NCBI GenBank assembly: GCA_021827485.1
Contig: JAKAVM010000052.1
Coordinates: forward strand, 7,084 to 71,083
Reading direction: 5' to 3'
Length of the DNA: 64,000 nucleotides
DNA from: Actinomycetes bacterium
GTDB taxonomy: Bacteria > Actinomycetota > Acidimicrobiia > Acidimicrobiales > JAKAVM01
This document shows positions 876-51,871 of the stretch, in pieces; position 1 is the stretch's first letter, and each line of letters begins with the position of its first letter. A program made the translations under genes and the position numbers. The notes beneath the pieces were generated by a model. It worked only from the letters and a program-made list of their open reading frames with translations, made no database searches and was not told where the DNA came from.

Positions 876-3800
876 TTAGCCAACGCCCCCTACGGCCGAC
901 CCATCAAATGGTGCATCGCCATAGCTGAACACACCTCCGTCGGCACCGATAAGCCAGTATCCTTTGCCGTCCGGGGTTGGAACAATGGAAATAATCGGAG
1001 CATGCAGTGCTATATTCTCAGCACCACCGAATAGGCCAGCGCTTCCAAAAGCCGATACGCTTCCGTTGGCCGATACCAGCCAGTAGCCAGTTCCACTCGG
1101 CGTTGAAGCTATTGCAACTGTTGGTGACGGTGAAGCGCTCTGTGACGAATGACCGGCGTTGGAACCGTAGAAGCTGGCAGCGCCAAAGGCGAATACTCCA
1201 CCATCGGAACCAACCAACCAATATCCTTGGCCGTTAGGGGTTGAAGTAATTGCTACAACTGGGGCACTCAAAGGCTTTCCTGACATAGATCCATAAAAAC
1301 CTGCGCCGCCAAAGGCGAATACTCCACCATCGGAACCAACCAACCAATATCCTTGGCCGTTAGGAGCAAGGGCGTTGCCAACTATAGGTGCAGCTGGGGT
1401 AATGCCTTTGGAGACTAGTGACCCGTCATTGCCGACGGATCCATAAGTAGCGACTCCTCCAGCTGGGTTGTTGACGATATAGCCAGGGCGTGGAGTTGTC
1501 GGTGGGACAGTAGTCGGTGGTGTGGTGGGAGGGGTCGTTGTTGGAGGGGTCGTTGTTGGAGGAGTAGTGGTGGACGTGGTTGAAGAAGCCACGCCTATTG
1601 ACAGTGCCTTAGTTGCAACAAGCGGGGGCGTCGAAGAATCAGAGACCGACACAGTAAAGCTGGACGTTCCTGCACTGGTAGGTGTCCCCGAAATCACACC
1701 ACCCGACGACAGGGCAAGTCCTGCCGGAAGAGACCCAGAGGCAATGGTCCACGTATAAGGTGTAATACCTCCCGTAACGATAAGATTAGCAGTGTATGAC
1801 GTCCCGACTGTTGCCCCGGGAAAAGATGAACTGACAATGGTAAGTTGACCGGAAGTAAACGTAAACTTATCACCCGAGTTAGCGACTGAAGACCCTCCCA
1901 CTCCTACGACCAATACATCTACAGTTGCTGGTTGCTCTGGCGGGGTAACAGCAATTATTTCTGTTGACGATACAATTTGGAAACTACTAGCTTGCACAGA
2001 TCCAAAGTCAACATAGGCTATTCCCCCAAGATTCTTACCCGTAATGGTCACCGAAGTACCTCCAGCAGTTGGACCTGAACCAGGGGAAACAGAGCTTACC
2101 GCAGGCGGATTAGAGGGTGGTGGTGGTGCCAGATAAGTGTATTGGTCTGCAGACGAGACAGCACTAGTAACACCGGCGTTGGTTACAGTGATATCAACCG
2201 CACCGGGAGTAGTAGCTGCCGGAGCGATCGCCGTTATCTTGGTAGAGGAGTTCACGGTGTAGCTCACTGCATCACTGGTGCCGAACTTCACGCCAGCTAC
2301 ACCGCTGGTTCCAGTAAAGCCGGTTCCGTTGATCACAACCGAGGCACCTGCTCCCATTGGCCCCGAAGTTGGACTTACCGATGTTACAGTCGGTGGCGAT
2401 ACACTAAGGGTAGTAACTCCGGTAGCGCCTAGATAGTAGGGGTCACCAGAATAAGTTGCCACAATGCTTTCATTGCTACCTGGCGGAGCATTCGAGGCAG
2501 TACACGATCCAAAGCCAGCGCTCAATGCAGCGGTAGTGCAAAGAGTGGTTCCACCGGCCGAGAAGGTAACCGTTCCCGCTGGCGCCGTCTCTCCAAGAGT
2601 TGCGAGGATTGCAGCCGTGTCAGGTGTACCAGCAACAGTTGCGCTGTAGGTAACCGACCCCCCATAACTTGTCGAAGTCGGACTTACCGATGGAGTGACT
2701 GAAGGTGCCCCATTATAAGTTAGAAACTCGTTGCCCGGTGAAGCACTATCTACTCCTAAACAGTATTGGGAGCCATCGTTCGGACACGACACTGACACAG
2801 GCGCACCACTTGAGTCGAGCTTGGTTGGCCCTGCCCAAGTTGTTCCGTTATAAAAGAAGGCATTGCCCGATGTATCGACAGCCTCACAAAAAGTCGTCGA
2901 AGAACACGACACTGACGCAAATGCATTTGTGCCATCAATTGGATTGGTCCAGCTATTGGGCGAAGTGCCAGTGCCCCATGAAACCCCGTTCCATATCACT
3001 GCCTCGCCACTAAGTGATACTGCTGCGCAGAAATTGGAGCTGACACAAGATACATATGGAGTAGTCCCAGTCGTGCCTGTTGAGACTTGAGTCCAAGTTG
3101 ACGTAGAAGCAGATATAGTCCCGCTTGTTTCCCAAGTACGGCCGAAACTTGAAGAATCACCAGCCATGCAAAAAGCGTCGCTTGCGCAAGATACAGTCTT
3201 CTGACCGAGCCCGCCCCCTACCTGATTAGTGCCCTTGGTCCAAAGCCCTCCAGGGGGGAAACCGTTGTACTCATACCAGTTACCACTATTGTCAAAACCA
3301 ACACATTGCAGTCCAGTGCCGGGTTCGCACCCTACCGACTCCATACTATCTCCCGATGGGACTGTTATAGTAGCTAAATTCCCAGCAATCCCTGTTGTCC
3401 AGTAATAAGAATAAGCAGAAGTTGATCCATTCCCATTGGTTACTGCAGCGCAGTAGGGGGTAGAGATACAAGAAACTGAGTTTACGGAAATACCCCCTAT
3501 CCCAGTGGCATCCACAGGCGTTGGAGAAAGAACAGACGATGTCCCACCAGTGGATACAACTGGACAGTAGTTGTAAGCGCTACACGAGACAGAAGTAGCA
3601 GGACTTGCGTAAGAACCCACTCCTCCACTGACAAAGTTAGATACCTCGCCACTATATATGAATGCATTTCCCACATCATCCACGGCTACGCAGAAACTGG
3701 CCGATGCACATGAAACCCCATCCAAATAGTTCGAACCGTCGATATTGGCCCCGGTATGTGGCGCACTCCAAACAGTCCCGTTGAAGTTTGACTCGTAGCC

Positions 3801-4730
3801 ACCTCCAACTGCAACGCAGTCGCTCGAAGTCGGACACGATATATAGGCCGCATGACCAATTATCGGGTTCGGACTATATGCACCCCACGACCCACTATAG
3901 CCGTACGCATTTCCAGCCCCATCAGTTGCGCCACACATTGTTGTAGTGGGACACGAAATCGATCCGAGGCCAAAGGAACTCGCACTTGCAATTGTCGCCG
4001 GAGCAGACCAGGTCGTTCCAGTCAAGATTGCACCTTTGCCACTAGAATCATCCGTTGCACAGAAGGTAGTAGTAGGACATGATATCGCACTTACTCCGAG
4101 GTCAACTGGATTTTGACTGGCCCAAGGCGATGCGTTGGCCCCAGTTGTAGCAGTAAGCCACACCTTCCCGTTGTACTCATATAGGTTACCACTTGCAGCT
4201 GCACCAACACAGAAAGTTACAGAGGGACACGATACACCGGTAAAATAATCACCACCGCTCAGTAGCGGATTGGTCCACGTAGTAAGAGTTGTCCAGTTCG
4301 TGCCGTTATAGGCATAAGCGTCGCGATTAGAGTCGACCGCCATACAGAAACTAGCCGATGTGCACGATATCGACATGATTTCATTGCCTGGCGAAATGGA
4401 AGTGGATGCCCAACCAACTCCGTTATAAATTACGATGTTTCCATTAGCATCTCCTACGGCGCAGAAACTTACCATCGGGCACGATACGGTCTCAAAAGTA
4501 GCACCCGGGTCAGCAACACTTGAGGGACTTGAGGCCCACACCGGGACAACTGTTGAAGCCGACACAGCTTGTGCGGGTGATACAGGCCCGATTGATGCTT
4601 CAATCGCCCCACCTATCAACCCGACTACGCCCGAGAGGCTTAGCATTAAGGCGACAATTATCCCTGTTAACTTTTTTGAAAAATAACTCTTGAAAAACTT
4701 CATTTGGTCTCCACCTTCTACTAATTGCAT
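876..4730 (-). CDS. Giant secreted surface protein. Domains in order: signal/TM, 14 Cys-pair blades, Ig-like domain, 2 IPT/TIG, He_PIG-type Ig domain, Pro/Thr linker, 5 C-terminal GYW repeats.
   Basis: 1284-aa ORF. The likely true start is MKFFKSYF at 4703, behind aaggtggag. There are fourteen motifs of the type (V/I)SCxSxxFCxAVDxxGNAxxYNGxxW. IPT/TIG-like segments are SVSPTSGPMGAGASVVINGTGFTG and VSSVSPGSGPTAGGTSVTITGKNLGG. The He_PIG-like segment is GITPYTWTIASGSLPAGLALSSGGVISGTPT. The linker is TTPPTTTPPTTTPPTTPPTTVPPTTP, followed by GQGYWLVGSDGGVFAFG repeats. Confidence 0.8.
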   Translation of the reverse strand: MQLVEGGDQMKFFKSYFSKKLTGIIVALMLSLSGVVGLIGGAIEASIGPVSPAQAVSASTVVPVWASSPSSVADPGATFETVSCPMVSFCAVGDANGNIVIYNGVGWASTSISPGNEIMSISCTSASFCMAVDSNRDAYAYNGTNWTTLTTWTNPLLSGGDYFTGVSCPSVTFCVGAAASGNLYEYNGKVWLTATTGANASPWASQNPVDLGVSAISCPTTTFCATDDSSGKGAILTGTTWSAPATIASASSFGLGSISCPTTTMCGATDGAGNAYGYSGSWGAYSPNPIIGHAAYISCPTSSDCVAVGGGYESNFNGTVWSAPHTGANIDGSNYLDGVSCASASFCVAVDDVGNAFIYSGEVSNFVSGGVGSYASPATSVSCSAYNYCPVVSTGGTSSVLSPTPVDATGIGGISVNSVSCISTPYCAAVTNGNGSTSAYSYYWTTGIAGNLATITVPSGDSMESVGCEPGTGLQCVGFDNSGNWYEYNGFPPGGLWTKGTNQVGGGLGQKTVSCASDAFCMAGDSSSFGRTWETSGTISASTSTWTQVSTGTTGTTPYVSCVSSNFCAAVSLSGEAVIWNGVSWGTGTSPNSWTNPIDGTNAFASVSCSSTTFCEAVDTSGNAFFYNGTTWAGPTKLDSSGAPVSVSCPNDGSQYCLGVDSASPGNEFLTYNGAPSVTPSVSPTSTSYGGSVTYSATVAGTPDTAAILATLGETAPAGTVTFSAGGTTLCTTAALSAGFGSCTASNAPPGSNESIVATYSGDPYYLGATGVTTLSVSPPTVTSVSPTSGPMGAGASVVINGTGFTGTSGVAGVKFGTSDAVSYTVNSSTKITAIAPAATTPGAVDITVTNAGVTSAVSSADQYTYLAPPPPSNPPAVSSVSPGSGPTAGGTSVTITGKNLGGIAYVDFGSVQASSFQIVSSTEIIAVTPPEQPATVDVLVVGVGGSSVANSGDKFTFTSGQLTIVSSSFPGATVGTSYTANLIVTGGITPYTWTIASGSLPAGLALSSGGVISGTPTSAGTSSFTVSVSDSSTPPLVATKALSIGVASSTTSTTTPPTTTPPTTTPPTTPPTTVPPTTPRPGYIVNNPAGGVATYGSVGNDGSLVSKGITPAAPIVGNALAPNGQGYWLVGSDGGVFAFGGAGFYGSMSGKPLSAPVVAITSTPNGQGYWLVGSDGGVFAFGAASFYGSNAGHSSQSASPSPTVAIASTPSGTGYWLVSANGSVSAFGSAGLFGGAENIALHAPIISIVPTPDGKGYWLIGADGGVFSYGDAPFDGSAVGGVG
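1181..1364. repeat. 126-bp-period coding tandem repeat (two GYW blades) containing a 58-bp perfectly identical block
   Basis: The block cgccaaaggcgaatactccaccatcggaaccaaccaaccaatatccttggccgttagg occurs at 1181-1238 and again at 1307-1364. Confidence 0.9.
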
Positions 4731-10897: not shown

Positions 10898-11556
10898 CTA
10901 ACCATCAATCCCTTCATCACAGTATTATATACAAAGTCAGCGCTCGCTTGTGGAGATTCGTTCCTGGCTATAATTCGAACCATTAGCATGGAGGTAACAG
11001 AGGCCGCGGTGTCAATAGCAGTAGTCGGACACTCGATCTCTCCATTATCTACACCAACCTGCAGTATGCCAGCAAGAGGGGCCGGTAGTGGGAAGATCAG
11101 CCTTGGGTCACGAGAATCGACAGGAGGACCTTCTGTCTTGCTAAACACAACAAATACGGCACGCGCCAGTACGCGATTATCAGTAATCACCTTTGCAGCT
11201 CTACGCAAATGACGTTGAACAGCAAGACTGACCGGCAAAGTTGAAGCATCCTTCAACGCTGCCTTGTTTAGGAAGGCCGCTTTCTTTGCAAGCACTGCTG
11301 CGGCCAATGCCCCCTTTGTCCCATATCGTTGATAAATCGTGGCCGGACCTACCCCAGCGTGAAAAGCTACCGACTCTACACTTGCTTGATCGAATCCGAC
11401 CTGTTCAAACAGTTGAAGTGCTGCCCCAAGAATCTTATCCTCGGATCGAGCGCGCCGAGTTGCTCCAGCTCGCAGCCTCCACTCTGGTAAATCTTGAGGA
11501 ACTCTGACGGTCATGGTAGTGCAATTAAGGGCTTCACTAGAAGAACTATAAGCCAC
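10894..11556 (-). CDS. TetR-family transcriptional regulator
   Basis: The HTH is ILGAALQLFEQVGFDQASVESVAFHAGVGPATIYQRYGTKGAL. It is divergent from the large secreted-enzyme operon. Confidence 0.8.
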   Translation of the reverse strand: MAYSSSSEALNCTTMTVRVPQDLPEWRLRAGATRRARSEDKILGAALQLFEQVGFDQASVESVAFHAGVGPATIYQRYGTKGALAAAVLAKKAAFLNKAALKDASTLPVSLAVQRHLRRAAKVITDNRVLARAVFVVFSKTEGPPVDSRDPRLIFPLPAPLAGILQVGVDNGEIECPTTAIDTAASVTSMLMVRIIARNESPQASADFVYNTVMKGLMVR

Positions 11557-11652
11557 CTACCCACGGTTTTCATATTTTATTTGATCTCTAACACTTTCTT
11601 TACAACTCTCTAACATTCTTCTTGGTAATATCTGAACTATAGTAACTATAAA

Positions 11653-14600
11653 TTGGATATAGGTGCGAATCAAGGAGGAAGCTTCATGGAGAAAATCAGG
11701 GCCTTGGGAACCAAGATGGTATTGCTTACCCTGGCGATAAGTGTCATGACCTTATATTTGGGCGGGTCAGCAGGCGCCTCAATTACCCCAAAGAGGACAT
11801 ACGGGTTAGCAGGTGCCACTGCAAGTACTACTGCCTATCCACATAAGATACGTCCACGCACTTCATCGGTTACCTATGGACTTGACGTCAACCAATTCGA
11901 CGGCGATATCGGACCTTCACGGATCCCAGTAGTTTTTGGTCTCATCGCACAAGCCGGAGCTTCAAATGTTAGGTTTGGACCGGGTGGAGGCTGGCAGGCA
12001 ATCGAGACTCAAGGTCCGGGCCAGGATAACTGGACTAGCTTCGACGCAAATATGGCGAGCGCCTACGGCGACCATCTGAGCGTTCTGCTAGAGATGGGAA
12101 ACGAACCAGCCTGGGATGCTGCCAACGGCAACGTCAACGCTCCTCCGTCAGACTGTTACGCCTGGACTCCGACGGTACCTACAACTTGGTGCTCTTCCGT
12201 CACAACCTGGGTAGATGATCTGGTCAACCATATGCTAACTACTACGATTGCATCAAGTAACCCGCCCGAGTCTGAAATAAGTGAAGTTGCTGGCCTGATA
12301 CCTCGCAACGAGCCACAAAACTACGCAATGAACTGGGTCGATCCAGCTTCCGGAGGCGCAAGCCAGTGGGGTCTCGACTACGCACACTTCCAGCAGACTG
12401 TATATCTAGCGGCACACTCCACAGTGTCAACTTACAATTCGAAAAATGCAACTAGCTATTCAATAGCCGTTATGAATGGGGGCGAGGAACTTTCCTCTCC
12501 AACGAGCCGGACCTTTTCGCGCCCATTTCAAAACAGCCAAACTTACGCAGATAATGCTCAGGAGATTGTAGAAACTCTCTACTCCACTCCAGCTTTTTGC
12601 GACTCTATCGATACTTTTGACTTTCATGTCGGCGATCACGGGCCCCTCTGGTCGGTAAAGATGGTAGACAATTCAGAATTAGCCCTAGAGTCATGCGATG
12701 GCGGGAAACACCTACCAATTTGGGTAAGCGAGGTCGGATACACATCGATCCCTCAGGTTCAGACCCTACCCGAATACGCTTCCGAGCTAGGCGGTGCTTA
12801 CCAAGGTGGTCAACTCGGCCAAGCACGTTATCTATATGACACAGAGTCTGCTCTTGCTGCAGATCCAAATGTCGTGGGTATTAATTGGACTTTCGTAGTG
12901 GACCCGAACACTTCAACAATCTCTTCCGGCGGAGCACTCCACGGACTGCACAATACAGGTCCGGGATTAGGTTTGTGGGCAGCTAATCCTGATCTCGGAT
13001 ACACTCCAAAGCTAGCCGTAAGCGCTTTGCAAGCCCTTGATGGCCACGGTGGTACTGTGCCATCCACGCCTACCCCTACCACTCAAACCAGTACGGGGAT
13101 ACTGAACAACGCTCCAAGTATCTTCGAATCCATTGATTGCACGTCGCCAGCTCAGTGCATAGCGGTCGGAGCACCGGGAGCAGTTGCCATAACTTCCAAT
13201 GGAGGTTCTACTTGGAGCATAGAAAATGGTATTCCCCAGGTGGGGGTCTTGAATGGCATCTCGTGTATTACCGCAAGCCAGTGTATCGCCGTAGGAGAGG
13301 CCAATGGAAATGGTATCGTTGAGCTAACTATCAATGGTGGTACAACCTGGACTCCTGGTTCCCTACCAACCGGAACAAGTTCGCTGAACGATGTATTTTG
13401 TTCCTCTACTACACTATGTATCGCTGTAGGAGATACTTTATTAGGAGCTGTGGTTGAGTTATCAAGCGACGCTGGAGCAACTTGGACCTCTGAGGCCGTA
13501 CCCTCGGATCTAGTCGACCTAACCAGTATATCATGTGCCTCTTCAAACATATGCGAGGCAGTTGGTAATGGTTCTGGAAACCCTAGTGGCGCCCTAGTAA
13601 TAGGAACTAGTAATGGTGGGTCCACCTGGACGCAGCAACCTCTCCAAAGTGACGGCCAGTTTCTTTCCTCAATATCTTGCCCATCTCCTTCGACTTGCTT
13701 GGCAATTGGAGGCACAAATTCCGGTACGCCATTGGCCATCTCTACATCCGATGGTGGGTCTTCATGGAAGGCTTTATCTTTACCACCAAGCGTCACAGCC
13801 TTATACCAGGTCGCATGTACAACGGCTTCCTCGTGTGTTGCAACTGGTGATGCTGGTAGCACAGCCGGATCTATCACTACAACCAATGGAGGCACTAGTT
13901 GGACGCTAGTACCTATGGCGGGACTCACCACCGCTTTTGGTATTTCCTGCCCAACTAGTTCAGTATGCTTCTCAGATGGGAATGGCTCATCTTCAATTGC
14001 TGAGTCCTCTGATGGCGGGCTCAATTGGACTTCCCAGGGCCCTTCAACCGATCAGCAACAGATCTTGGCAACAGCTTGTCCTTCATCTACCACATGCTAT
14101 GCAGTTGGAGATACTACCACTTCCGGAGCGATTCTAACTAGTACCGACGCTGCTAGTGCCTGGACTTCTCAAAGCGCACCATCGAACATAAGCGATCTTT
14201 TTGCGATCTCCTGCCCATCTGTGACCATTTGTTTTGCAAGTGGTGATAGTGCGAGCGGCGGCGCAGTTATTGAAACCACCAATGGGGGGTCAACTTGGCA
14301 AGACTTATCAGGTATACCGGCAAGTTCACTTGTCATAGACGGAATATCGTGCCCTAGCACAAGCCAGTGTATCGCTGTGGGAGATGGTAGTTCCGGACAG
14401 TTTATGGATGCAGTTGCTATTGAGACCATCGATGCAGGGCAGTCATGGAGTGTACTGACTTTACCATCTGGGATTTTTGATCTCTATGGTGTATCTTGCG
14501 CATCAGAATCTAACTGTGTAGCGGTTGGCGACACAGGAAATTCAACCTCTACGTCAGGTGTAGCTATTTCAACCTCTGACGGTGGTGCATCATGGTCAAG

Positions 14601-15798
14601 CGCATTGCTTCCAGTAGGTCCGAGCTTTCTCTATAGCGTTTTATGCCTACCAGCAACTTCAACTTGTTGGGCGGGAGGAGAACAGTTCTCAGGTGGCTCA
14701 GGTGGCGGAACGAATGGGCCATCTATTCTAATGAGTACTGACGGGGGTGCTGATTGGACCGCCCAATCACCACCCTCTACTTTATCGTCAGTCCTGTCTC
14801 TAGCGTGTTTGAATACTTCAACATGTATGGCATCTGGTGTCGGCGATACTCCGGTAATATCCACAACCAATGGAGGTGGAACCTGGCAACCTGGCCAAGT
14901 TCCAGTCTCCCCGTATAATTTTCAGTCAATTGCTTGTATGTCCTCTACAACATGTATCGCTGCAGGAGGCAACTTGATAGCATCCATTGCTAATAGTGGC
15001 TCTCCACCACCTCCTCCACCACCTCCCCCACCACCTCCGCCTTCGAGTGGAACAGGTTACTGGATGATGGACGCCCAAGGTGAAGTGTTTTCCTTTGGTA
15101 CTGCTCAGTCGCTTGGTTCAGCAAAAGGTATCGGACCGTGGGTAGCCATGGCAGCTACCCCTGACGGTGGCGGATACTGGTTGATTTCATCGAAAGGAGT
15201 GGTTCAAAACTTCGGAGATGCAGGGCAACTCACGTTGTCTAATGAGAAATACGGGGTATCGCCTCCGGTGTCAATTGCGTCTACTACCGATGGTAAAGGT
15301 TACTGGGTAGCAACTTCTAATGGACAGGTGCTAACGGCAGGTGATGCCAGTTACTTTGGCTCCCCTGCTCAATCAGGAATATCTCTCAACTCCGGTATAG
15401 TCAATATGGTACCTACGCCCGATGGAGCAGGTTATTGGCTCTTAGGTGGTGACGGCGGGGTATTTAGCTACGGTGATGCTTCATTTTATGGATCAACTGG
15501 CGCAATGCACTTGAGTAAACCAGCAATCGCTATGACTCCAACATCAGATGGTAAAGGTTACTGGTTTGTCGCTACCGACGGAGGTGTCTTTGCGTTTGGT
15601 GACGCAGTTTATTACGGGTCCATGGGCGGCAAGCCTCTGAATAAACCCATCGAGGGAATTGTATCTACTACTGATGGTGGTGGTTATTGGCTGGCTGCGA
15701 CCGATGGAGGGGTATTTAGTTATGGCGATGCCGGATTCGTAGGATCCCTGGGGAGCAATCCGCCTTCAAGTCCAGTTGTTGCTTTTGAAAGGAGCTAA
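11653..15798 (+). CDS. Secreted multidomain protein. Domains in order: clan GH-A-like TIM-barrel domain, 14 Cys-pair BNR/Ycf48-like blades, poly-Pro linker, 7 GYW repeats.
   Basis: The likely start is ATG 11686 (MEKIRALG) behind caaggagga. GH-A-like motifs are MGNEPAWD, PRNEPQNY and WVSEVGYTS. There are fourteen I(S/D)CxSxxxCxAVG..(S/T)xxGGxTW units. P13 is encoded at 15004-15042. Seven GYW..DGGVF.FGDA repeats follow. Confidence 0.8.
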   Translation: MDIGANQGGSFMEKIRALGTKMVLLTLAISVMTLYLGGSAGASITPKRTYGLAGATASTTAYPHKIRPRTSSVTYGLDVNQFDGDIGPSRIPVVFGLIAQAGASNVRFGPGGGWQAIETQGPGQDNWTSFDANMASAYGDHLSVLLEMGNEPAWDAANGNVNAPPSDCYAWTPTVPTTWCSSVTTWVDDLVNHMLTTTIASSNPPESEISEVAGLIPRNEPQNYAMNWVDPASGGASQWGLDYAHFQQTVYLAAHSTVSTYNSKNATSYSIAVMNGGEELSSPTSRTFSRPFQNSQTYADNAQEIVETLYSTPAFCDSIDTFDFHVGDHGPLWSVKMVDNSELALESCDGGKHLPIWVSEVGYTSIPQVQTLPEYASELGGAYQGGQLGQARYLYDTESALAADPNVVGINWTFVVDPNTSTISSGGALHGLHNTGPGLGLWAANPDLGYTPKLAVSALQALDGHGGTVPSTPTPTTQTSTGILNNAPSIFESIDCTSPAQCIAVGAPGAVAITSNGGSTWSIENGIPQVGVLNGISCITASQCIAVGEANGNGIVELTINGGTTWTPGSLPTGTSSLNDVFCSSTTLCIAVGDTLLGAVVELSSDAGATWTSEAVPSDLVDLTSISCASSNICEAVGNGSGNPSGALVIGTSNGGSTWTQQPLQSDGQFLSSISCPSPSTCLAIGGTNSGTPLAISTSDGGSSWKALSLPPSVTALYQVACTTASSCVATGDAGSTAGSITTTNGGTSWTLVPMAGLTTAFGISCPTSSVCFSDGNGSSSIAESSDGGLNWTSQGPSTDQQQILATACPSSTTCYAVGDTTTSGAILTSTDAASAWTSQSAPSNISDLFAISCPSVTICFASGDSASGGAVIETTNGGSTWQDLSGIPASSLVIDGISCPSTSQCIAVGDGSSGQFMDAVAIETIDAGQSWSVLTLPSGIFDLYGVSCASESNCVAVGDTGNSTSTSGVAISTSDGGASWSSALLPVGPSFLYSVLCLPATSTCWAGGEQFSGGSGGGTNGPSILMSTDGGADWTAQSPPSTLSSVLSLACLNTSTCMASGVGDTPVISTTNGGGTWQPGQVPVSPYNFQSIACMSSTTCIAAGGNLIASIANSGSPPPPPPPPPPPPPSSGTGYWMMDAQGEVFSFGTAQSLGSAKGIGPWVAMAATPDGGGYWLISSKGVVQNFGDAGQLTLSNEKYGVSPPVSIASTTDGKGYWVATSNGQVLTAGDASYFGSPAQSGISLNSGIVNMVPTPDGAGYWLLGGDGGVFSYGDASFYGSTGAMHLSKPAIAMTPTSDGKGYWFVATDGGVFAFGDAVYYGSMGGKPLNKPIEGIVSTTDGGGYWLAATDGGVFSYGDAGFVGSLGSNPPSSPVVAFERS

Positions 15799-17080
15799 CA
15801 TGAAAACTACTAAGTATCTTAGTAAGAATAATAATAGCCGTAGCCAACGATTAGGTATTCTTGCGCTGACCGGTTTGGCGCTTGCATCTGCTTGTGGGCT
15901 ATTCAAGGGTGGCACCCATCCTGGAAGTAATTCACGCCCAGCGGGTCTGGTGCCTACCACTACGTCTAGTTCAGCTTTCAGTGACACAACCAATCAATCG
16001 CAGTTGTCAGGAAATATTACGTATGGAATTGATGTCAACCAATTTGACAGTGATATCGGACCGCAAAAAGTTCCCCAGGTACTCCAGATGATTCGCCAAG
16101 CTGGTGCCAGAGCGGTTCGTATTGGTGCTAGTTGGGCAACAACAGAGCCATCTCCCGGGGTATTCAACTGGACCGGGGTCGATAAACTCTTATCGACCGC
16201 CAATACCGATGGTTTAGTCGTGCTCTATGAGCTTGGAAACGAACCTGCCTGGGATGCGCTCGGGGGCAATGTGAACGCCCCGCCGAGCGACTGCGCATCC
16301 CCGTCAGCGTCATGCTCGTCGGTCATAACCTACGTATCAAATCTGATCGCACACGCAAAAACTGAAGGATTGAACTACCTAATTGTGCGCAACGAACCTC
16401 AGAATTTTAACAAGAATTGGGTCGGTGGCACCGCCGCTGCTTACGCCCATTTTCAACAGGTGGTTTATCAAACAGCCCATCAAGCTAGTCCAACCATCAA
16501 AGTCCTAAACGGTGGTACCGAAGCAGTATCGGCTAGCCTTGCTAAGCTACGCAACCAAATCCAGCCACAAACTGCCTATATGAAACAGGTTCAGGGTTTT
16601 GCCTCAGAACTTTATTCTAACCCGATATGGTGTGACTCTCTAGACGTTCTTGACGTACACGTAGGCGACCATGGACCGGTCTATTCGCCACAGATTGTTG
16701 ATGCGTCCGAGGCGGCACTTCAAGCATGTAACGGTGGGAAACATGTACCCGTGTGGGTAACCGAAGTGGGCTATCCTTCCCTTGCTTCGCTCCAAGCTTC
16801 TCATGTTTACCAAGTCGAGCTAGGTGGGAACTATCAAGGAGATCGGACTGGACAAGCACGTTATCTAACCGATACCTTCAACGCCTTGGCTAAAGATCCT
16901 AATGTGATAGGCATTAACTGGACATTTATGATCGACCCAAACCTGAACAACACAGTTCCAGCTGGTGCCACTTACAACCAGACTTTCAGCGCTGGCATGG
17001 GAGCAGGTTTAGCTTACGCATCATACAAGGAGAAAGCAGCCTACCAAGCATTTCAGTTGGCCTCGCGAGGTGGATCATGA
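15776..17080 (+). CDS. Clan GH-A-like glycoside hydrolase lipoprotein (paralogue of the N-terminal domain of the preceding protein)
   Basis: The likely start is ATG 15800 behind aaaggag. The lipobox is LALASACG. Shared motifs are LGNEPAWDALGGNVNAPPSDC, VRNEPQNF and WVTEVGYPS. Confidence 0.7.
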   Translation: MLLLKGANMKTTKYLSKNNNSRSQRLGILALTGLALASACGLFKGGTHPGSNSRPAGLVPTTTSSSAFSDTTNQSQLSGNITYGIDVNQFDSDIGPQKVPQVLQMIRQAGARAVRIGASWATTEPSPGVFNWTGVDKLLSTANTDGLVVLYELGNEPAWDALGGNVNAPPSDCASPSASCSSVITYVSNLIAHAKTEGLNYLIVRNEPQNFNKNWVGGTAAAYAHFQQVVYQTAHQASPTIKVLNGGTEAVSASLAKLRNQIQPQTAYMKQVQGFASELYSNPIWCDSLDVLDVHVGDHGPVYSPQIVDASEAALQACNGGKHVPVWVTEVGYPSLASLQASHVYQVELGGNYQGDRTGQARYLTDTFNALAKDPNVIGINWTFMIDPNLNNTVPAGATYNQTFSAGMGAGLAYASYKEKAAYQAFQLASRGGS

Positions 17081-18792
17081 ATCAAGAACTCACAACCGTA
17101 GTTGTTGGAGCAAATATCATCACGATGGACCCGAATCGGCCACGAGCCGATGCAATAGCGCTGGCTGGCCGCAACATACTTTGCGTTGGTCCCCTAGCTG
17201 AAGTTCTTGAAAGGGCAGGGGGCGGAGTAAACATTGTAGACATTGGAGGCAAAACTCTTATCCCAGGATTCATCGATCCGCACCACCATCTCTTCCTCGT
17301 AGCGGCCGATAGATTCAAGTTCAATCTGGATGGTGCAAAACCTAGATCGATCAAAGAGTTGCTTGACGAAGTCGCCAGAGTTGTACAAATTGACTCGGGA
17401 GAAGGTTGGCTGCGTATTCACGGTTATGAACCTCTGTCGTTGTTCGAACATCGTTCTCCAAATGCAGCCGAATTAGACTCGGTTTGCCCCGATCGGCCAC
17501 TTCACTTGATTGGGCTGACCTATCATGAATCTACTCTAAATAGCCTTGGACTAGCTCGGCTTGGTTGGAACTATAAATCTGACGATCCTCCAGGGGGACG
17601 CATTGTGAGAAATCATCAAGGAAAGCCGACTGGAGTTCTTCTTGAACAAGCAAGTTTTCAAGCAGAGAGCATTTCGCGCGAAGAGCTTATGCGACAAGGT
17701 GCTCCAAGTTGGATCGATCGAGCCTCAAGCCATGCATTTGAGTTAGCGAAGGCTGGTATAACACGGATAGGCGACGCGTGTGTGCCACCCATCGGTATGA
17801 CACTCTACGAAGAAGCATCTAAGCAAGGAAGACTGCCAATAACTATTCACCGCTTTCCAGTGGGCTCATCTTCGCTTGGCGATCCCTATGTAGGTGACCG
17901 TGTCACGTTGGCTGGTGATTTCAACAAGCTACCGATTGGCCCAGCAAAAATTATCGTAGACGGAGGGGAACGCTGTCATCTCTGTCTATCGAGCCGCCAG
18001 TTGATGTCAACTATTACCTCAACTCTGATCCGGACTTTTTCCCGAGGTTCACTTGCCTTAGCTCTAGCCAATAGGAGTGGATGGGCACGTCGTGAAGCCG
18101 ACGGGAGATACCACACTGGCATTCGGCTATTGGAGGATGACTCTCTTTTAGGTGCTGTAAGACAGGCAGCTCAAAGTGGTGTTCAGGTAGCGCTTCATGC
18201 AGTTGGTAATGGTGGGGTTAAATCGGCACTCGATGTGCTCTCTATGGCACAAGGTGCACTTGCTGGCTTGTCGGGTTATCCCCGGATCGAACATGCAATG
18301 ATCGTTGACCGTGAACTCATCGAACGTATTGCCTCCAATCAAGCTCTGGTGGTCGCCCAGCCTTCTTTCTTGACTGATTTGGGTGATGAGCTTACCGTGT
18401 TGCCCCTGCCTTCACCACTTCATCTTATGCCTTTTCGAACTATGCTAGACGCAGGCGTAAATATCGCAGGGAGTTCAGATTTCCCCGCTAGTTCTTTCCG
18501 GCCTCTTGCTGGAATCCAAGCCGCGATGCTTCGCAAGACCGCTGGTGGAAAAGTCATTGATTGCGATGAGGCTATTACTGTCGAGCAGGGATTGCGGATG
18601 TACACGACAGTTGCAGCCGAGTCGCTAGGGGTCGGAGCAAGTGCTGGCACTCTTAGAGAAGGCAGTAGTGCTGACTTGGTAGTTTTGTCAGATGATCCTT
18701 ACACGATACCACCGGAGCGCTTGGACAAGATCGAGGTTCTCCAAACGTGGGCTGGCGGTAAAATGATTTTTGATTCGGCTCTCAAGCCATGA
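17077..18792 (+). CDS. Amidohydrolase-family metallohydrolase (Amidohydro_3/YtcJ-like)
   Basis: IPGFIDPHHHL is the metal-binding motif. The protein is 571 aa, with ATGA overlaps on both sides. Confidence 0.7.
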   Translation: MNQELTTVVVGANIITMDPNRPRADAIALAGRNILCVGPLAEVLERAGGGVNIVDIGGKTLIPGFIDPHHHLFLVAADRFKFNLDGAKPRSIKELLDEVARVVQIDSGEGWLRIHGYEPLSLFEHRSPNAAELDSVCPDRPLHLIGLTYHESTLNSLGLARLGWNYKSDDPPGGRIVRNHQGKPTGVLLEQASFQAESISREELMRQGAPSWIDRASSHAFELAKAGITRIGDACVPPIGMTLYEEASKQGRLPITIHRFPVGSSSLGDPYVGDRVTLAGDFNKLPIGPAKIIVDGGERCHLCLSSRQLMSTITSTLIRTFSRGSLALALANRSGWARREADGRYHTGIRLLEDDSLLGAVRQAAQSGVQVALHAVGNGGVKSALDVLSMAQGALAGLSGYPRIEHAMIVDRELIERIASNQALVVAQPSFLTDLGDELTVLPLPSPLHLMPFRTMLDAGVNIAGSSDFPASSFRPLAGIQAAMLRKTAGGKVIDCDEAITVEQGLRMYTTVAAESLGVGASAGTLREGSSADLVVLSDDPYTIPPERLDKIEVLQTWAGGKMIFDSALKP

Positions 18793-20660
18793 AAACTGTA
18801 AGAAAAACCTCCTTGGCTCTAGTTCTTTCTATTGCAACTATTCTTACGTTGGCTTTGATGCCAACCCTCGCACCAACTTCGGCCCTCGCACCAACTTCGG
18901 CCCTCGCACCAACTTCGGCCCTCGCACCTGCGTCGGCCCTCGCTTCTCCCTCTTGGCCACATGGATCAAGCGTAGCTAAAGCACACGGATTACCTAGTGG
19001 GGTACAGAGTTGGCCGGAAGTGATATACGGACATGACGGATACAGTCAAGCAACCTGTTCAGGAACTGATGCCCTTGGGTACAGTGTCTTCGCTCCAAGC
19101 GCACCAGGACCACATCCAATTGTATTTGGAATTACTGGGACCGGCTTCAAAGGATCGGCCGGATGTATATCGGGATCCAACCCGCCTGAACCAGTCTATA
19201 CTTCGATGAATTGGCTGATGGCCCAGTGGGCGCAAGCGGGATATGTTGCTGTAAACATTGAGTACCACGGATATACAAATGGTCTCTACGGTGACGTCAC
19301 TTATCCCGGTATAGGCAAGTGGGGAAATATCGCTGATGGTACCGTACAGCTCGATATCAAACCGGCGATTCAGTACTTTCTTTCCAATAACCCATCTCAA
19401 TATGGTGCCGATCCTGCATCAGGAATAGTTGTATTTGGTGGATCATCAGGAGCACACGATGCGTACATGGTTGCGGCCACTGGAATTCCAAATGTGACCG
19501 TTAACGCAGTTGTTGGATGGTCAGGACTTCCGGATGTGAGCCTTGCTGGCTCGTATCCCGAATCTGTATTTGACCAATATATGCAGACAACTCCCGGCAC
19601 CGATGTCGAGAACTTTGGAGATCCGGACCATCGAATTAACTCGTCAATGCCACCACAGTACGTTGCTAATGGTCTTACTGAGTTTATTAACGTTCAAAAC
19701 GCTCAATCTTATGCTAACGACCTTAACAAAGCTGGCATCACAGAGTGGTTACGCATTCCAAATACCTCTGAGCATGCAACAGCCTATGCGGGTTACACTT
19801 TCACCGGACAGAGTCCTGAAGTTTCCCAACCTGCAGCGTCGGTCGGTACGAGTGTCACGCAGGATTCTATCAACTTTGCTAATCAGTACGTGAGAAATTC
19901 GGCCCCTCCACCTTCAAACAGTCCTGGCTACTGGATGCTCGCGTCCGACGGAACAGTTTACGCATTTGGTTCCGCAAAATCTTATGGCAATGCAACTGCT
20001 CTCTCGTCGGCAGCGGCGTTTGCCCCTACTCCCGATGGAAAGGGCTACTGGATTGCCTCTCCCGACGGATCCGTCGAGGCGTTTGGAGATGCAAGCGCTT
20101 ATCCACAGCCAGCTAATATATCCGGTACCGTTGTATCCATCGCCAGCACTGGCGACGGAAAAGGATATTGGATTACCACTTCAACGGGTCAACTGATTAC
20201 GGCTGGAGATGCGATTTCGTATGGGAGTGCACCTTCCAAACTAAATGCTGCAATTATTGACATGGCACCTACTCCTGATGGGGAAGGATATTGGATGCTC
20301 GGGGCCGATGGTGGAGTCTTTGCTTTTGGTGACGCAGGATTTTACGGTTCTACTGGGAATATCCATCTCGTTTCTCCGGCAAATGGCATCGCTCCAACCC
20401 CCGACGGCAAGGGTTACTGGTTTGTCGCTACTGATGGTGGTGTCTTTGCGTTTGGTGATGCAGGATTTTACGGTTCGATGGGAGGCAAGACTCTTAACAA
20501 ACCAGTCGAAAAAATGGTAGCGACTACTGACGGGAAAGGTTACTGGCTCGCAGGTTCAGATGGTGGAGTCTTTGCTTTTGGTGATGCAGGATTCGTAGGT
20601 TCCCTGGGGGCAGATCCCCCTGCAACTCCTATCGTCGCCTTCGATCCATCGTTATCTTGA
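18789..20660 (+). CDS. Secreted alpha/beta-hydrolase (esterase/lipase-like) fused to 7 C-terminal GYW repeats
   Basis: A signal peptide is followed by the (LAPTSA)n repeat. The G-x-S-x-G motif lies in VVFGGSSGAHD. The PPPS linker is followed by seven GYW repeats collinear with those of 11653..15798. Confidence 0.75.
   Translation: MKTVRKTSLALVLSIATILTLALMPTLAPTSALAPTSALAPTSALAPASALASPSWPHGSSVAKAHGLPSGVQSWPEVIYGHDGYSQATCSGTDALGYSVFAPSAPGPHPIVFGITGTGFKGSAGCISGSNPPEPVYTSMNWLMAQWAQAGYVAVNIEYHGYTNGLYGDVTYPGIGKWGNIADGTVQLDIKPAIQYFLSNNPSQYGADPASGIVVFGGSSGAHDAYMVAATGIPNVTVNAVVGWSGLPDVSLAGSYPESVFDQYMQTTPGTDVENFGDPDHRINSSMPPQYVANGLTEFINVQNAQSYANDLNKAGITEWLRIPNTSEHATAYAGYTFTGQSPEVSQPAASVGTSVTQDSINFANQYVRNSAPPPSNSPGYWMLASDGTVYAFGSAKSYGNATALSSAAAFAPTPDGKGYWIASPDGSVEAFGDASAYPQPANISGTVVSIASTGDGKGYWITTSTGQLITAGDAISYGSAPSKLNAAIIDMAPTPDGEGYWMLGADGGVFAFGDAGFYGSTGNIHLVSPANGIAPTPDGKGYWFVATDGGVFAFGDAGFYGSMGGKTLNKPVEKMVATTDGKGYWLAGSDGGVFAFGDAGFVGSLGADPPATPIVAFDPSLS
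18867..18938. repeat. 18-bp in-frame tandem repeat ctcgcaccaacttcggcc x3 perfect plus 1 degenerate copy (encodes LAPTSA)
   Basis: Read directly, just after the signal-peptide hydrophobic core. Confidence 0.9.
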
Positions 20661-47897: not shown

Positions 47898-47973
47898 GGG
47901 CCGCTAGCTCATCAGGTAGAGCAGGGGACTTTTAATCCCAAGGTGCCGGGTTCGAGCCCCGGGCGGCCCACCA
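47898..47973 (+). tRNA. tRNA-Lys (anticodon TTT), CCA encoded
   Basis: GGGCCGC TA GCTC ATCAGGTA GAGC A GGGGA CTTTTAA TCCCA AGGTG CCGGG TTCGAGC CCCGG GCGGCCC A CCA. Confidence 0.9.
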
Positions 47974-49462: not shown

Positions 49463-49765
49463 CTAGGCCGCAGCAAAGCCATTAATCGGACTAGGCGACG
49501 GATTGGCTCCAAGGGAACCTACATACCCAGCATCACCGAATGCAAAAACTCCTCCGTCAGCACCTGCTAGCCAGTTTCCTCCACCGTCAGGAGTGGAGGA
49601 GATCGAAGGTACAAAGCTAGTAGGATTTGCACTTAGAGAATATAGTTGTCCCGTACCGACAGCTTCAACGTTTCCGATCGCATTAATTCGAAAAACAAAG
49701 CTACCTCCAATTGAGATTGGAATTGTCTCCATCCTTGCGCTTGCCCTCCCTGATTGAAACTGCAC
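49463..49765 (-). pseudogene. Detached C-terminal GYW-repeat fragment, in frame with the upstream gene across a TAA
   Basis: TPDGGGNWLAGADGGVFAFGDAGYVGSLGANPSPSPINGF matches the terminal blade of the other family members. The codons read tgc taa att ccc gtg, in the same frame as 49772..51871. Confidence 0.55.
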
Positions 49766-49771
49766 GGGAAT

Positions 49772-51871
49772 TTAGCATAGACATCTTGCTATCCCGACTG
49801 TTGAATGCAGATTACCCCCTGAAATTGCGTTACCAAAATAGCCTGCCTCCCCATAGGCAAATACTCCGCCGTCGGAAACTGCTAGCCAATATCCTCCACC
49901 ATCTGGAGTTGCGGCAATTGCCACCACTGGGGCTGAGAGCTTTAGATTTGACGGCGATCCGAAGAAATTTGCATCCCCATAGGCAAATACTCCGCCGTCG
50001 GAAGCTGCTAGCCAATATCCTCCACCGTCTGGAGTTGCCGCAATTGCCACCACTGGGGCTGAGAGCTTGAGATTTGACGGCGATCCGAAGAAATTTGCAT
50101 CCCCATAGGCAAATACCCCTCCGTCAGATGCTGCTAGCCAATATCCCCCGCCGTCTGGGGTAGCGGAGATCGCGACTATATAGGCAGACGAAGACACTGC
50201 AGTTTTGGGAGTGTAGCTACAAGCATCGCCAAGAGTTGTGATAGTTGCATTTGACGAAGCGAGCCAGTAGCCATGCCCGCGATTGATACTTGTAGGCAGG
50301 TGGATATCAAAGGAGAAACTATAACTTGTGATCCCCGGCCCTATCACAGTTACCATCACTGAACTTGGAGAGCAAGTACTTGAGGTGTTCACCGGTTCAG
50401 CGGGCAAAGCTGGGGCAACAGTTTGGATCTCAGTATCTGAGATAATTGAGAATGATGTCGCAGCTTGGCTCCCGAAGTAAACAGCGCTTGCCCCAAGTAA
50501 TCCAGATCCGCCAAGCGTTACGGTTTCTCCCCCACTAGAAATTCCCTCCTCAGGAGTTATAGAGTTTATTAGTGGAATGCTTGATCCAACTTCTCTAATT
50601 TGATTGGCATATTGCTCTTCAATAAAGAGCTGGCCCGATGGTGAGATAGCAAGAGATGCTGGGTCGTAGACAGACGCTTGTGTAGCTGGTCCACCGTCAC
50701 CTGGTAGTCCGATCTTTCCAATTCCTGCAAAACTTGTCACTATGCCGGTCGTCGCCGACACCTCCCACACGCGGTTGTAGTTGGTGTCAGATATAAAGAC
50801 ATTTCCCGATTGGTCAACTGTAATCCCGCCAATATTGCCGAACGTAACCGAAGTTGCCGATTGACCGTCGTTGCCGCCGTTGCCGCCGTTGATCGCAGAA
50901 CTGCTGCATGATAAAGAGCCTGTGCCCGATCCGGCAACCGTTAGAAGAATTCCGGTCGATGCGTCAATCTTACTCACCTTACAGTCGGTGAATTGGCCAA
51001 CATAGAGATCTCCCGACGGGCCGATTGCGATCTCTGACAACGCGCCCAGCATTTCAGAGGTTGCTGGTATGTCCGATGCACTCGACGTGCCTCCTCCGGC
51101 GACAAGGTAGATACTGCCTGAAACCATCGACATCCCAAACTGACTATGACTGGTCGTTGCTATCTCCTCTACTGCTCCTTGCCCAACACTAATCAGAACA
51201 TCCCCTCGGGTATCGATCACCAAAGAGCCTGGATAGTAGAGCTGAGCAGCACTTGCAGGACCACCTAACCCGGTCAATCCCGCTGTTCCGGTTCCGGCAA
51301 TGGTTGTTATATCCCCAGTTGCCTTGGATATCTCGCGCACTCGTTGATTTGTAGAATCACTTATAAATACGTTGCCTGCGCTATCTACAGCGACTCCATC
51401 TACTTGACCAAGTTGAGCCTTGGTGGCTGGACCACCATCTCCCGAAAAGCCACACATCCTAGGAATCCCGGCAATTGTAAAGATCAACCCAGTCTTAGCT
51501 GACACTTCCCTAACAATGCAGTTGTAGGTATCGGCAATAAAGAGATTGCCATGACTATCTAGTGCAACTGCTCCAGCTGGACCAGGGCAATTTGATCCCA
51601 TGCAGTTTCCAAAGTAGGAGAAGAATAGTGTCGCCTGGGTTGCAAAACCACCGTCTCCCGAATAAGAACCACCCAGGAACCCTGGTGTCCCAACAACTGT
51701 CGAGATCGTTGGTACTCCGTCAATGTTTGATCTGCCTAATATGTTGTATTTGGAGACGTTACGGTTGCCAGCAACTAAGGCCTGAGCACCGAGTGAGCCG
51801 ACAGTATTTATTATCATGAAAGGCCCGAGTAGTAACACTAGAGTTACTATCCAAGTACGAAACATAATCAA
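49772..51871 (-). CDS. Secreted NHL-repeat + IPT/TIG + GYW-repeat protein (C-terminally interrupted)
   Basis: The signal peptide is MFRTWIVTLVLLLGPFMIINTVGSLGAQA. NHL blades include GDGGPATKAQLGQVDGVAVDSAGNVFISDSTNQRVREI. The IPT/TIG segment is ITPEEGISSGGETVTLGGSGLLGASAVYFG. There are four GYW repeats. Confidence 0.75.
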   Translation of the reverse strand: MIMFRTWIVTLVLLLGPFMIINTVGSLGAQALVAGNRNVSKYNILGRSNIDGVPTISTVVGTPGFLGGSYSGDGGFATQATLFFSYFGNCMGSNCPGPAGAVALDSHGNLFIADTYNCIVREVSAKTGLIFTIAGIPRMCGFSGDGGPATKAQLGQVDGVAVDSAGNVFISDSTNQRVREISKATGDITTIAGTGTAGLTGLGGPASAAQLYYPGSLVIDTRGDVLISVGQGAVEEIATTSHSQFGMSMVSGSIYLVAGGGTSSASDIPATSEMLGALSEIAIGPSGDLYVGQFTDCKVSKIDASTGILLTVAGSGTGSLSCSSSAINGGNGGNDGQSATSVTFGNIGGITVDQSGNVFISDTNYNRVWEVSATTGIVTSFAGIGKIGLPGDGGPATQASVYDPASLAISPSGQLFIEEQYANQIREVGSSIPLINSITPEEGISSGGETVTLGGSGLLGASAVYFGSQAATSFSIISDTEIQTVAPALPAEPVNTSSTCSPSSVMVTVIGPGITSYSFSFDIHLPTSINRGHGYWLASSNATITTLGDACSYTPKTAVSSSAYIVAISATPDGGGYWLAASDGGVFAYGDANFFGSPSNLKLSAPVVAIAATPDGGGYWLAASDGGVFAYGDANFFGSPSNLKLSAPVVAIAATPDGGGYWLAVSDGGVFAYGEAGYFGNAISGGNLHSTVGIARCLC
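49849..50165. repeat. 126-bp coding tandem repeat, 2 full copies with 4 mismatches in 126 plus a diverged third copy
   Basis: Units start at 49849, 49975 and 50101 (ccccataggcaaatac...). Each unit encodes one 42-aa GYW blade. Confidence 0.9.

Follow-up and report, generated by a model that had tools for sequence, protein, structure and literature searches.

Wall-binding repeat modules shared by hosts and their phages are already known as a kind of system, and the beta-propeller is already known as a fold. In Streptococcus pneumoniae, choline-binding repeats (CW_binding_1) occur in surface proteins as well as in the phage lysins Cpl-1 and Pal, the ligand being choline on teichoic acid. CWB2 of Clostridioides difficile forms a toprim-like trimer and SLH of Bacillota a helical one, and in the lectin RSL of Ralstonia solanacearum each chain holds two blades, with the trimer forming six. 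The present analysis deals with a repeat domain encoded in a stretch of 64,000 nucleotides from an Actinomycetes bacterium (contig JAKAVM010000052.1, positions 7,084 to 71,083), in the following called the window, the sequence of which is identical to contigs in three public metagenome-assembled genome (MAG) assemblies. Four genes, A to D, carry arrays of this repeat at the C-termini of their products, and the domain is probably a non-covalent cell-wall-binding propeller common to host surface proteins and phage lysins.

The repeat has a length of about 42 amino acids (aa), corresponding to 126 bp, with the consensus GYW(L)xxxDGGVFAFGDAxxxGSxxxxxxxxPxVxxAxTPDGx. For locating its copies, a hidden Markov model (HMM) was built from the window repeats and run on the six-frame translation of the 64-kb window, and GYW motifs were counted separately. 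The HMM matched the array of gene A and four other places only, at E-values between 1e-9 and 1e-22 per repeat; further copies in the six frames were not detected, the best other segment having E=0.18. Independently, Tandem Repeats Finder (TRF) reported a 126-bp period at 49844-50158. A previous sequence-only reading of this DNA had described just such a 42-aa repeat with a 126-bp period at protein C-termini, and the places it had recognized were all recovered. The carriers and their repeats, the latter as located by the HMM scan, are the following.

11653..15798, forward strand: gene A, 1381 aa from a TTG start (1370 aa from Met at 11686 in the public annotation); in order, signal peptide, clan-A-like glycoside hydrolase domain, Cys-pair/Asp-box repeats, Pro13 linker, six-blade propeller (predicted)
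15002..15040, forward strand: Pro13 linker before the gene A propeller
15055..15795, forward strand: gene A propeller, six repeats, modelled with six times three strands plus a terminal strand
15055-15171, 15172-15297, 15298-15429, forward strand: gene A repeats 1-3
15430-15555, 15556-15681, 15682-15795, forward strand: gene A repeats 4-6
18789..20660, forward strand: gene B, 623 aa; signal peptide followed by a BD-FAE-type esterase, a short PPPS linker and the predicted six-blade propeller
19926..20657, forward strand: gene B propeller, six repeats, collinear with that of A at 60% aa identity
19926-20042, 20043-20162, 20163-20285, forward strand: gene B repeats 1-3
20286-20411, 20412-20537, 20538-20657, forward strand: gene B repeats 4-6
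876..4730, reverse strand: gene C, 1284 aa; signal peptide followed by Cys-pair repeats, Big_3_5, two IPT/TIG domains, the (TTPP)n linker and an array of five repeats
879..1484, reverse strand: gene C repeat array, five repeats
1353-1484 (degenerate, GYIV...), 1227-1352, 1089-1226, 963-1088, 879-962, reverse strand: gene C repeats
49772..51871, reverse strand: gene D, 699 aa if read from TTG and 697 aa in public assemblies; signal peptide followed by an NHL propeller, an IPT/TIG domain and four repeats up to a TAA stop
50147-50272, 50021-50146, 49895-50020, 49775-49894, reverse strand: gene D repeats 1-4
49466..49771, reverse strand: remnant downstream of gene D, in frame beyond the TAA stop at 49772-49774

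All arrays occupy the C-termini of their open reading frames (ORFs) and comprise six (A), six (B), five (C) and four repeats (D, with another two in the fragment). Hence, the seven copies previously assigned to both 15043-15795 and 19918-20657 have to be corrected to six each (753 bp divided by 126 gives 6, in agreement with the HMM scan), and the supposed five or more proteins are four genes plus one fragment, the latter being the in-frame continuation of gene D. In gene A, GYW count and HMM scan give a unit length of 38-44 aa. The six-repeat domains of A and B are collinear and end in a common capping sequence, as had been noticed before (GDAGFVGSLGSNPPSSPVVAF in A and GDAGFVGSLGADPPATPIVAF in B), but their DNA identity, thought to be about 80%, amounts to 65% overall and reaches 79% in the last third only, at 60% on the protein level. 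Mean identity between blades of one protein is 0.41-0.53 in the window proteins. A Pro-rich linker, said to precede the domain always, is indeed present in A (P13), B (PPPS) and C ((TTPP)n), but is missing before the array of gene D. The N-termini of all four proteins, judged by eye, resemble signal peptides with charged n-region, hydrophobic core and AxA-like site, in line with the proposed secretion of the carriers.

AlphaFold2 (AF2) prediction of 15043-15795, employing an alignment of 71 sequences, resulted in a confident model (mean predicted local distance difference test score, pLDDT, of 95.5; predicted template modelling score, pTM, of 0.92) with six units of three DSSP strands each and a final strand at residues 245-250, the PVVAF cap. 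The domain opens at GYW, which is the second strand of the unit, and closes with the strand otherwise preceding GYW, so that the usual 'velcro' closure of propellers is predicted; in gene A, the first residues are GYW and the last strand, PVVAF, is modelled as the closing one. According to this model, six blades, each corresponding to one 42-residue repeat, make up a compact beta-propeller of about 250 aa, which shows the characters of its class, i.e., 4-8 blades, tandem repeats of about 40-60 aa and a terminal closing strand. A Foldseek search of the PDB gave 1059 matches at E<=0.001, the 50 listed being propellers without exception, with 7bif, 2ymu, 1l0q and 5yzv as best matches and designed WD40s, a YVTN S-layer propeller and lactonases among them. 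These matches are mostly seven-bladed, at template modelling (TM) scores of 0.55-0.66 and identities of not more than 17%, and the BFVD likewise returned only propellers of a generic kind. A specific structural relative was looked for and dismissed, as both databases yielded generic WD40, YVTN and lactonase propellers only.

The beta-propeller surmised from the sequence is clearly corroborated by these results, whereas the seven blades proposed for it are not. Besides repeat count and AF2 secondary structure, exactly six blades are found in 84 of 97 propeller ORFs at 80 genome loci and in 92 of 120 close homologues, and the best 150 representatives mostly possess 6, 12 or 18 blades, six being by far the commonest number. 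About 36 of the 42 blade positions are conserved, and mean blade identity within a protein reaches 0.70 in the best matches, a sample biased to consensus-like arrays. This high similarity between blades hints at multivalent recognition.

The extent of the family was established by running a blade profile from the window against 1.84 billion representatives of clusters at 50% identity, giving 19,411 clusters at E<=1e-3, of which 8,982 reach E<=1e-30. In species-representative genomes, at least 594 loci were found, the best 80 of which belong almost exclusively to Acidimicrobiia MAGs, plus the cultured Acidithrix ferrooxidans PY-F3. Judged from the genome loci examined, the family appears to be nearly confined to Acidimicrobiia and their phages. 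Close members also turned up in two bins outside the Actinomycetota, a 'Thermoplasmata archaeon' (L034, DAHVCH010000009.1) and a 'Gemmatimonadota bacterium' (P0113), which could be due to mis-binning or lateral transfer. At 12 of the 80 genome loci, two to four propeller genes lie within 12 kb.

In the family, the propeller is not bound to one place. The extreme C-terminus, held to be its invariable position, applies to the window genes, but of the 150 representatives 112 have the domain at the C-terminus, 24 at the N-terminus and 11 internally, and 3 consist of it alone; tandem double and triple propellers occur as well. These numbers bear on a conceivable role as C-terminal sorting or secretion signal similar to the C-terminal domain of the type IX secretion system (T9SS), read by a dedicated machinery and perhaps removed. 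Such a role would suit the C-terminal location in all four window genes and most representatives, the flexible linker ahead of the array in three of the four and the high diversity of passengers. It is largely refuted, however, by the N-terminal, internal and tandem propellers and by the occurrence in phage endolysins described below, which are not exported by such systems; moreover, 250 aa would be large for a tag and candidate machinery genes were not found in the window. A sorting signal is, hence, scarcely credible.

A first line of evidence on function comes from the partner domains. Among the 120 close homologues, Pfam detects the peptidoglycan enzymes NlpC/P60 (11), Rpf-type transglycosylase (5), CHAP (3), YkuD (2), 3D (2), VanY (1) and Amidase_5 (1), in addition to CAP in 5 and several Ig-like domains. 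The propeller is found on either side of the catalytic domain, as is the case with known wall-binding modules. For longer proteins, partners were tabulated in a random 63 of the top representatives and include TIG, fn3, Big_3_5, NHL, Vgb_lyase, Calx-beta, cadherin-like and subtilase domains, among others. Partners in both sets are of extracellular types throughout, bearing out the earlier idea of a common module on differing secreted passengers. Together with the export signals seen by eye in the window proteins and a hydrophobic N-terminal stretch in 114 of the 150 representatives (crude test), this is in agreement with a secreted or surface module.

The second line of evidence is provided by phages. 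In a scan of IMG/VR, the repeat was found in 67 viral loci. Two blades are encoded by 32 viral ORFs and three by 25 (57 in total), the proteins having about 230-390 aa; the median number of residues is 211 ahead of the blades and 1 behind them. An N-terminal Amidase_2 domain (N-acetylmuramoyl-L-alanine amidase) is present in 36 of 51 of these two- to three-blade proteins and GH25 in 1, and similarity to the PHROG 'endolysin' family 1493 is restricted to the N-terminal approximately 180 aa, i.e., to the catalytic half. Amidase_2 endolysins ending in two or three blades are found at L095 (5389-6378), L120 (5428-6285) and about 55 other loci (L089-L150), and the L095 gene occupies the usual lysis position, behind tape-measure and tail genes and ahead of an integrase and small ORFs. 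Being located C-terminally to Amidase_2 and right before the stop, the repeat holds the place of the wall-binding domain of modular endolysins, that is, of a non-catalytic module C-terminal to the active domain. Fusion to peptidoglycan enzymes and this position in endolysins point to wall binding, and the cell-envelope anchoring proposed from the sequence is probably right, with strong comparative support; that the domain defines a surface-display system, as was suggested along with it, is an inference.

In the short viral chains, the inner strand GAVAIxxTPSGxGYW comes first and the stop follows immediately after the last blade. As two and three both divide six, the phage tails of two or three blades might, by analogy, oligomerize into a six-blade ring. 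Larger viral proteins of 850-1300 aa with one or two full propellers are encoded as well, for example at L091 (5023-8154), L085/L086 (12 blades) and L152 (4699-8610, 9 blades). In a viral protein of 1044 aa, six repeats occur together with PG_binding_1, and tblastn against GenBank phages revealed a 1304-aa protein of MK557849 with nine blades beside a minor tail protein. The depositor's label 'GH25' for the latter was discarded, Pfam showing no match at E<=1e-4, and the protein is counted here only as an example of nine repeats in a protein of a phage tail region. One of these large proteins bears PG_binding_1 and one adjoins a minor tail protein; a role in binding or degrading the wall as part of the virion is possible for them.

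The fragments of two and three blades, implying self-association, would also suit a protein-protein scaffold that docks passengers on an S-layer-like lattice or into a multi-enzyme complex without binding carbohydrate. Propellers are common interaction platforms, WD40 and YVTN propellers, among them the archaeal S-layer YVTN propeller 1l0q, head the Foldseek matches, and one module is common to many paralogues. However, phage endolysins act on the wall from within, and their C-terminal modules are wall-binding in every characterized case. Furthermore, a conserved partner gene was not seen beside the propeller genes of the window, and the structural matches are generic at the TM scores and identities given above. 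Accordingly, a scaffold is considered quite improbable.

For the wall-binding propeller, the following mode of action can be envisaged. Passengers would be exported by their signal peptides, in the window the glycoside-hydrolase-like enzyme of A, the esterase of B, the adhesin-like Ig/IPT protein of C and the truncated NHL-IPT protein of D, and in three of the four a flexible Pro/Thr-rich linker would connect to the propeller. The latter would bind non-covalently to peptidoglycan itself or to a wall-attached glycopolymer and thereby hold or target the fused passenger at the cell surface. Phages of the same hosts would employ two or three blades as C-terminal wall-binding part of their amidase endolysins, the short arrays presumably forming the six-blade ring as trimers or dimers, respectively. 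Going further, the chances are about even that the domain represents an undescribed wall-binding class, with six blades or assembling from chains of three or two, which provides Acidimicrobiia with their main non-covalent display anchor, each genome having dozens of paralogues, has been borrowed by phages and reads a repetitive wall polymer multivalently.

Several observations weigh against wall binding. Most of the conserved positions could be purely structural, and confidence is limited because this might even apply to all conserved residues. Peptidoglycan enzymes are rare in longer members, where the spectrum of partners is broad (fn3, TIG, Calx-beta, cadherin-like, subtilase, Vgb_lyase), a pattern that suits a surface anchor and a general lectin or interaction module alike. 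The 120 close homologues are all of 440 aa or less, and the top 150 representatives are biased towards consensus-like arrays. In addition, genes A and B are located in a possible glycan-degradation cluster (9692-18792 of the window), where a substrate-binding role would be equally natural. Besides A and B, the cluster has the following members.

9692-10897, reverse strand: GH5 cellulase
10894-11556, reverse strand: TetR regulator
15776-17080: 434-aa paralogue of the N-terminal hydrolase-like domain of gene A, with weak GH42 and GH35 matches, sharing a 23-nt overlap with the end of gene A
17077-18792: Amidohydro_3 protein

This neighbourhood speaks for a lectin or carbohydrate-binding module directed at foreign polysaccharides (plant, algal or microbial) that brings hydrolase, esterase or phytase to the substrate and not to the own wall: A and B are clustered with the GH5 cellulase, a second clan-A-like hydrolase, the amidohydrolase and TetR. 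Phytase, subtilase, Vgb_lyase and purple-acid-phosphatase N-terminal domains among the partners are consistent with this role, and near-identical blades are typical of multivalent lectin propellers such as tachylectin-2, RSL and AAL. However, a lectin for foreign glycans would leave the fusions to NlpC/P60, CHAP, Rpf-like, YkuD, VanY and 3D enzymes unexplained, as well as the module at the C-terminus of phage Amidase_2 endolysins and the many non-catalytic, adhesin-like Ig/TIG/fn3 passengers, and it is therefore rather unlikely. If the bound glycan is a wall glycan, lectin and wall-binding views merge.

The repeat is not represented in the family catalogues. Neither Pfam nor NCBIfam (June 2026 release) has a model for it, and phmmer and two profile searches of PDB sequences returned nothing significant, in line with the previous statement that it is no named Pfam family; in the literature searched, a description of the repeat or of propeller-type endolysin binding domains was not found. 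The Pfam models for BNR/Asp-box, WD40, NHL, YVTN, SBBP, Kelch, PQQ and TolB gave zero matches on the C-terminal arrays, the Sortilin-Vps10, NHL and SBBP matches falling into the passenger parts of genes A and D; by eye, TPDGxGYW loosely resembles the Asp-box SxDxGxTW. Likewise, CW_binding_1, LysM, SH3b, PG_binding_1, SLH and CWB2 are absent from the window arrays, from the listed families of the 120 homologues and from the 51 phage proteins, PG_binding_1 having been found once, beside the propeller rather than inside it.

At or below the Pfam threshold, Ribosomal_L24e, SH3_YKFC_2nd, DUF5818, DUF4859 and F420H2_quin_red recur with matches of 17-20 residues inside blades. Membership in L24e (PF01246) was rejected, as matches cover 17-22 residues in single blades, stay below the 27-bit cut-off and never pass as a single stretch. 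The same holds for SH3_YKFC_2nd (PF23795), DUF5818 (PF19135) and DUF4859, with repeated matches inside blades to positions 40-57 of 57 in SH3_YKFC_2nd and 6-22 of 57 in DUF5818; a few members pass the whole-protein cut-off by summed short matches only, with 0 stretches passing. The Joint Genome Institute (JGI) label 'ribosomal protein L24E' on members P0005, P0017, P0020, P0032, P0087 and P0095 arises because short hairpin matches sum up over repeated blades; two others are named 'uncharacterized membrane protein YgdD', and both names are annotation artefacts.

Weak matches also raise the question of a divergent RCC1/BLIP-II-type propeller with shortened blade. The function could then resemble that of BLIP-II, a secreted actinobacterial inhibitor of beta-lactamases and related penicillin-recognizing proteins, although this idea concerns ancestry more than function. 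Pfam RCC1_2 (PF13540; RCC1 itself is PF00415) is matched at E=0.044 and 5 of 120 members match it at E<=1, the best of them at 0.0017; the window repeat profile matches the RCC1-like domain of HERC1 (4o2w) weakly and periodically (E=0.019), and BLIP-II also has three strands per blade, the number assigned here by DSSP. However, all matches are below threshold (RCC1_2 at 14.1 bits versus a cut-off of 22), that to HERC1 vanishes with a profile of 109 diverse blades, the best PDB match then being fascin (E=0.16), and many unrelated Pfam models with hairpins (L24e, SH3, DUF5818 and F420H2_quin_red) match a much larger number of members than RCC1_2. In RCC1-like propellers there are seven blades of 50-60 aa, compared to six of 42 aa here, and the top 50 Foldseek PDB matches include no RCC1 or BLIP-II structure. 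The relationship is thus treated as unsupported and very improbable.

Individual window genes show further peculiarities. In gene B, an 18-bp tandem repeat with 4.4 copies at 95% identity (18865-18943, forward strand) encodes an (APTSAL)n stretch directly after the hydrophobic core of the signal peptide. For the array of gene C, AF2 gave a pLDDT of 84.8 overall and of 40-59 across the degenerate first repeat, with four blades being confident; the last repeat (879-962) is shortened and lacks the closing strand. In gene D, repeats 2 and 3 encode one and the same amino acid sequence at a DNA identity of about 94% (TRF period of 126 with 94% matches), indicating recent duplication, recombination or gene conversion. 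The remnant beyond its stop comprises about 25 unrelated residues, a degenerate repeat 5 (49580-49684) and an intact, capped repeat 6 (49466-49579), so gene D and remnant together read as an originally six-blade domain that is now broken. An identical split is present in five independent public contigs. A rescue of gene D by frameshift was rejected, since the missing blade is in no other frame and the stop is kept in the five contigs. Upstream in window coordinates, a tRNA-Lys (47898-47973, forward strand) is directly followed by a tyrosine integrase (48089-49231, forward strand) and then by the broken gene D, an arrangement that looks like the edge of an integrated element.

A second unrecognized repeat, about 45-50 aa long and marked by a conserved pair of Cys residues (SC.s..fC.AvG...), is found in gene A at residues ~480-1115 (~13090-15000, forward strand) and in gene C at residues ~80-660 (~2750-4490, reverse strand). 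The gene A copies bear an Asp-box-like S.DGG.TW motif and are Sortilin-Vps10/BNR-like, with weak matches to Sortilin-Vps10 and F510_1955 only, and those of gene C have zero Pfam or NCBIfam matches. Comparable N-terminal repeats occur in several homologues (e.g., P0026, P0033, P0062 and P0066). Furthermore, the region is flanked by two large STAND-type regulators (4851-7718 and 22718-25435, both reverse strand), one with BTAD plus NB-ARC and the other with AAA_16 plus GerE/LuxR.

Although abundant in acid mine sites, soils, fresh water and oceans, Acidimicrobiia are almost unstudied as to their envelope and surface proteins. With about 19,000 clusters lacking a curated model, and members named 'hypothetical' or wrongly 'ribosomal protein L24E', the family constitutes a sizeable blind spot, and a Pfam/InterPro entry from the family alignment would improve the annotation of thousands of proteins. 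If wall binding holds true, it would account for the surface retention of hydrolases, adhesin-like proteins and autolysins, and endolysin wall-binding domains would gain a new fold and a split design of two, three or six blades. The propeller might then also serve as a probe for labelling or capturing Acidimicrobiia cells, e.g., as a fusion with green fluorescent protein (GFP), and as a sequence marker tying uncultured phages to Acidimicrobiia hosts.

Compared with known systems, the domain has the beta-propeller fold in common with WD40 and YVTN propellers, among which 2ymu is also a 'highly repetitive' bacterial propeller, but it has no WD40 or YVTN Pfam match, and structural similarity, at the TM scores and identities given above, is to mostly seven-bladed members. 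A phage propeller aimed at a Gram-positive wall glycopolymer has been described in the receptor-binding protein gp45 of Staphylococcus phage phi11 (PDB 5EFV), which is five-bladed and has a putative N-acetylglucosamine (GlcNAc) site for wall teichoic acid (PMC6115969). In contrast to the viral proteins found here, gp45 is a tail receptor-binding protein and not an endolysin, and it has five blades, shows no detectable sequence similarity and is outside the top 50 Foldseek matches. With RSL and tachylectin-2, the domain shares very similar blades, each of which can carry a sugar site in those lectins, and the ring of six blades from short chains in RSL parallels the two- and three-repeat phage proteins with their putative ring. 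However, there is no sequence match to these lectins and they are absent from the top 50 Foldseek matches. CWB2 and SLH are functional analogues, one module for a wall polymer being used there in dozens of paralogues, and their passengers (NlpC/P60, amidases, YkuD, CAP, proteases and adhesins) nearly match the repertoire found here, albeit with another fold, without homology and in another phylum. Choline-binding repeats differ in forming a solenoid of about 20-aa units, as opposed to the closed six-blade propeller predicted from 42-aa units, and CW_binding_1 does not match. Nevertheless, both are short, aromatic- and Gly-rich, non-catalytic repeat modules of variable repeat number, placed behind a flexible linker, attached to many secreted passengers including autolysins and shared with the endolysins of phages of the host. 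What is new, then, is a large uncatalogued family, the putative use of a propeller as targeting module of endolysins and autolysins, and its apparent modularity of two, three or six blades.

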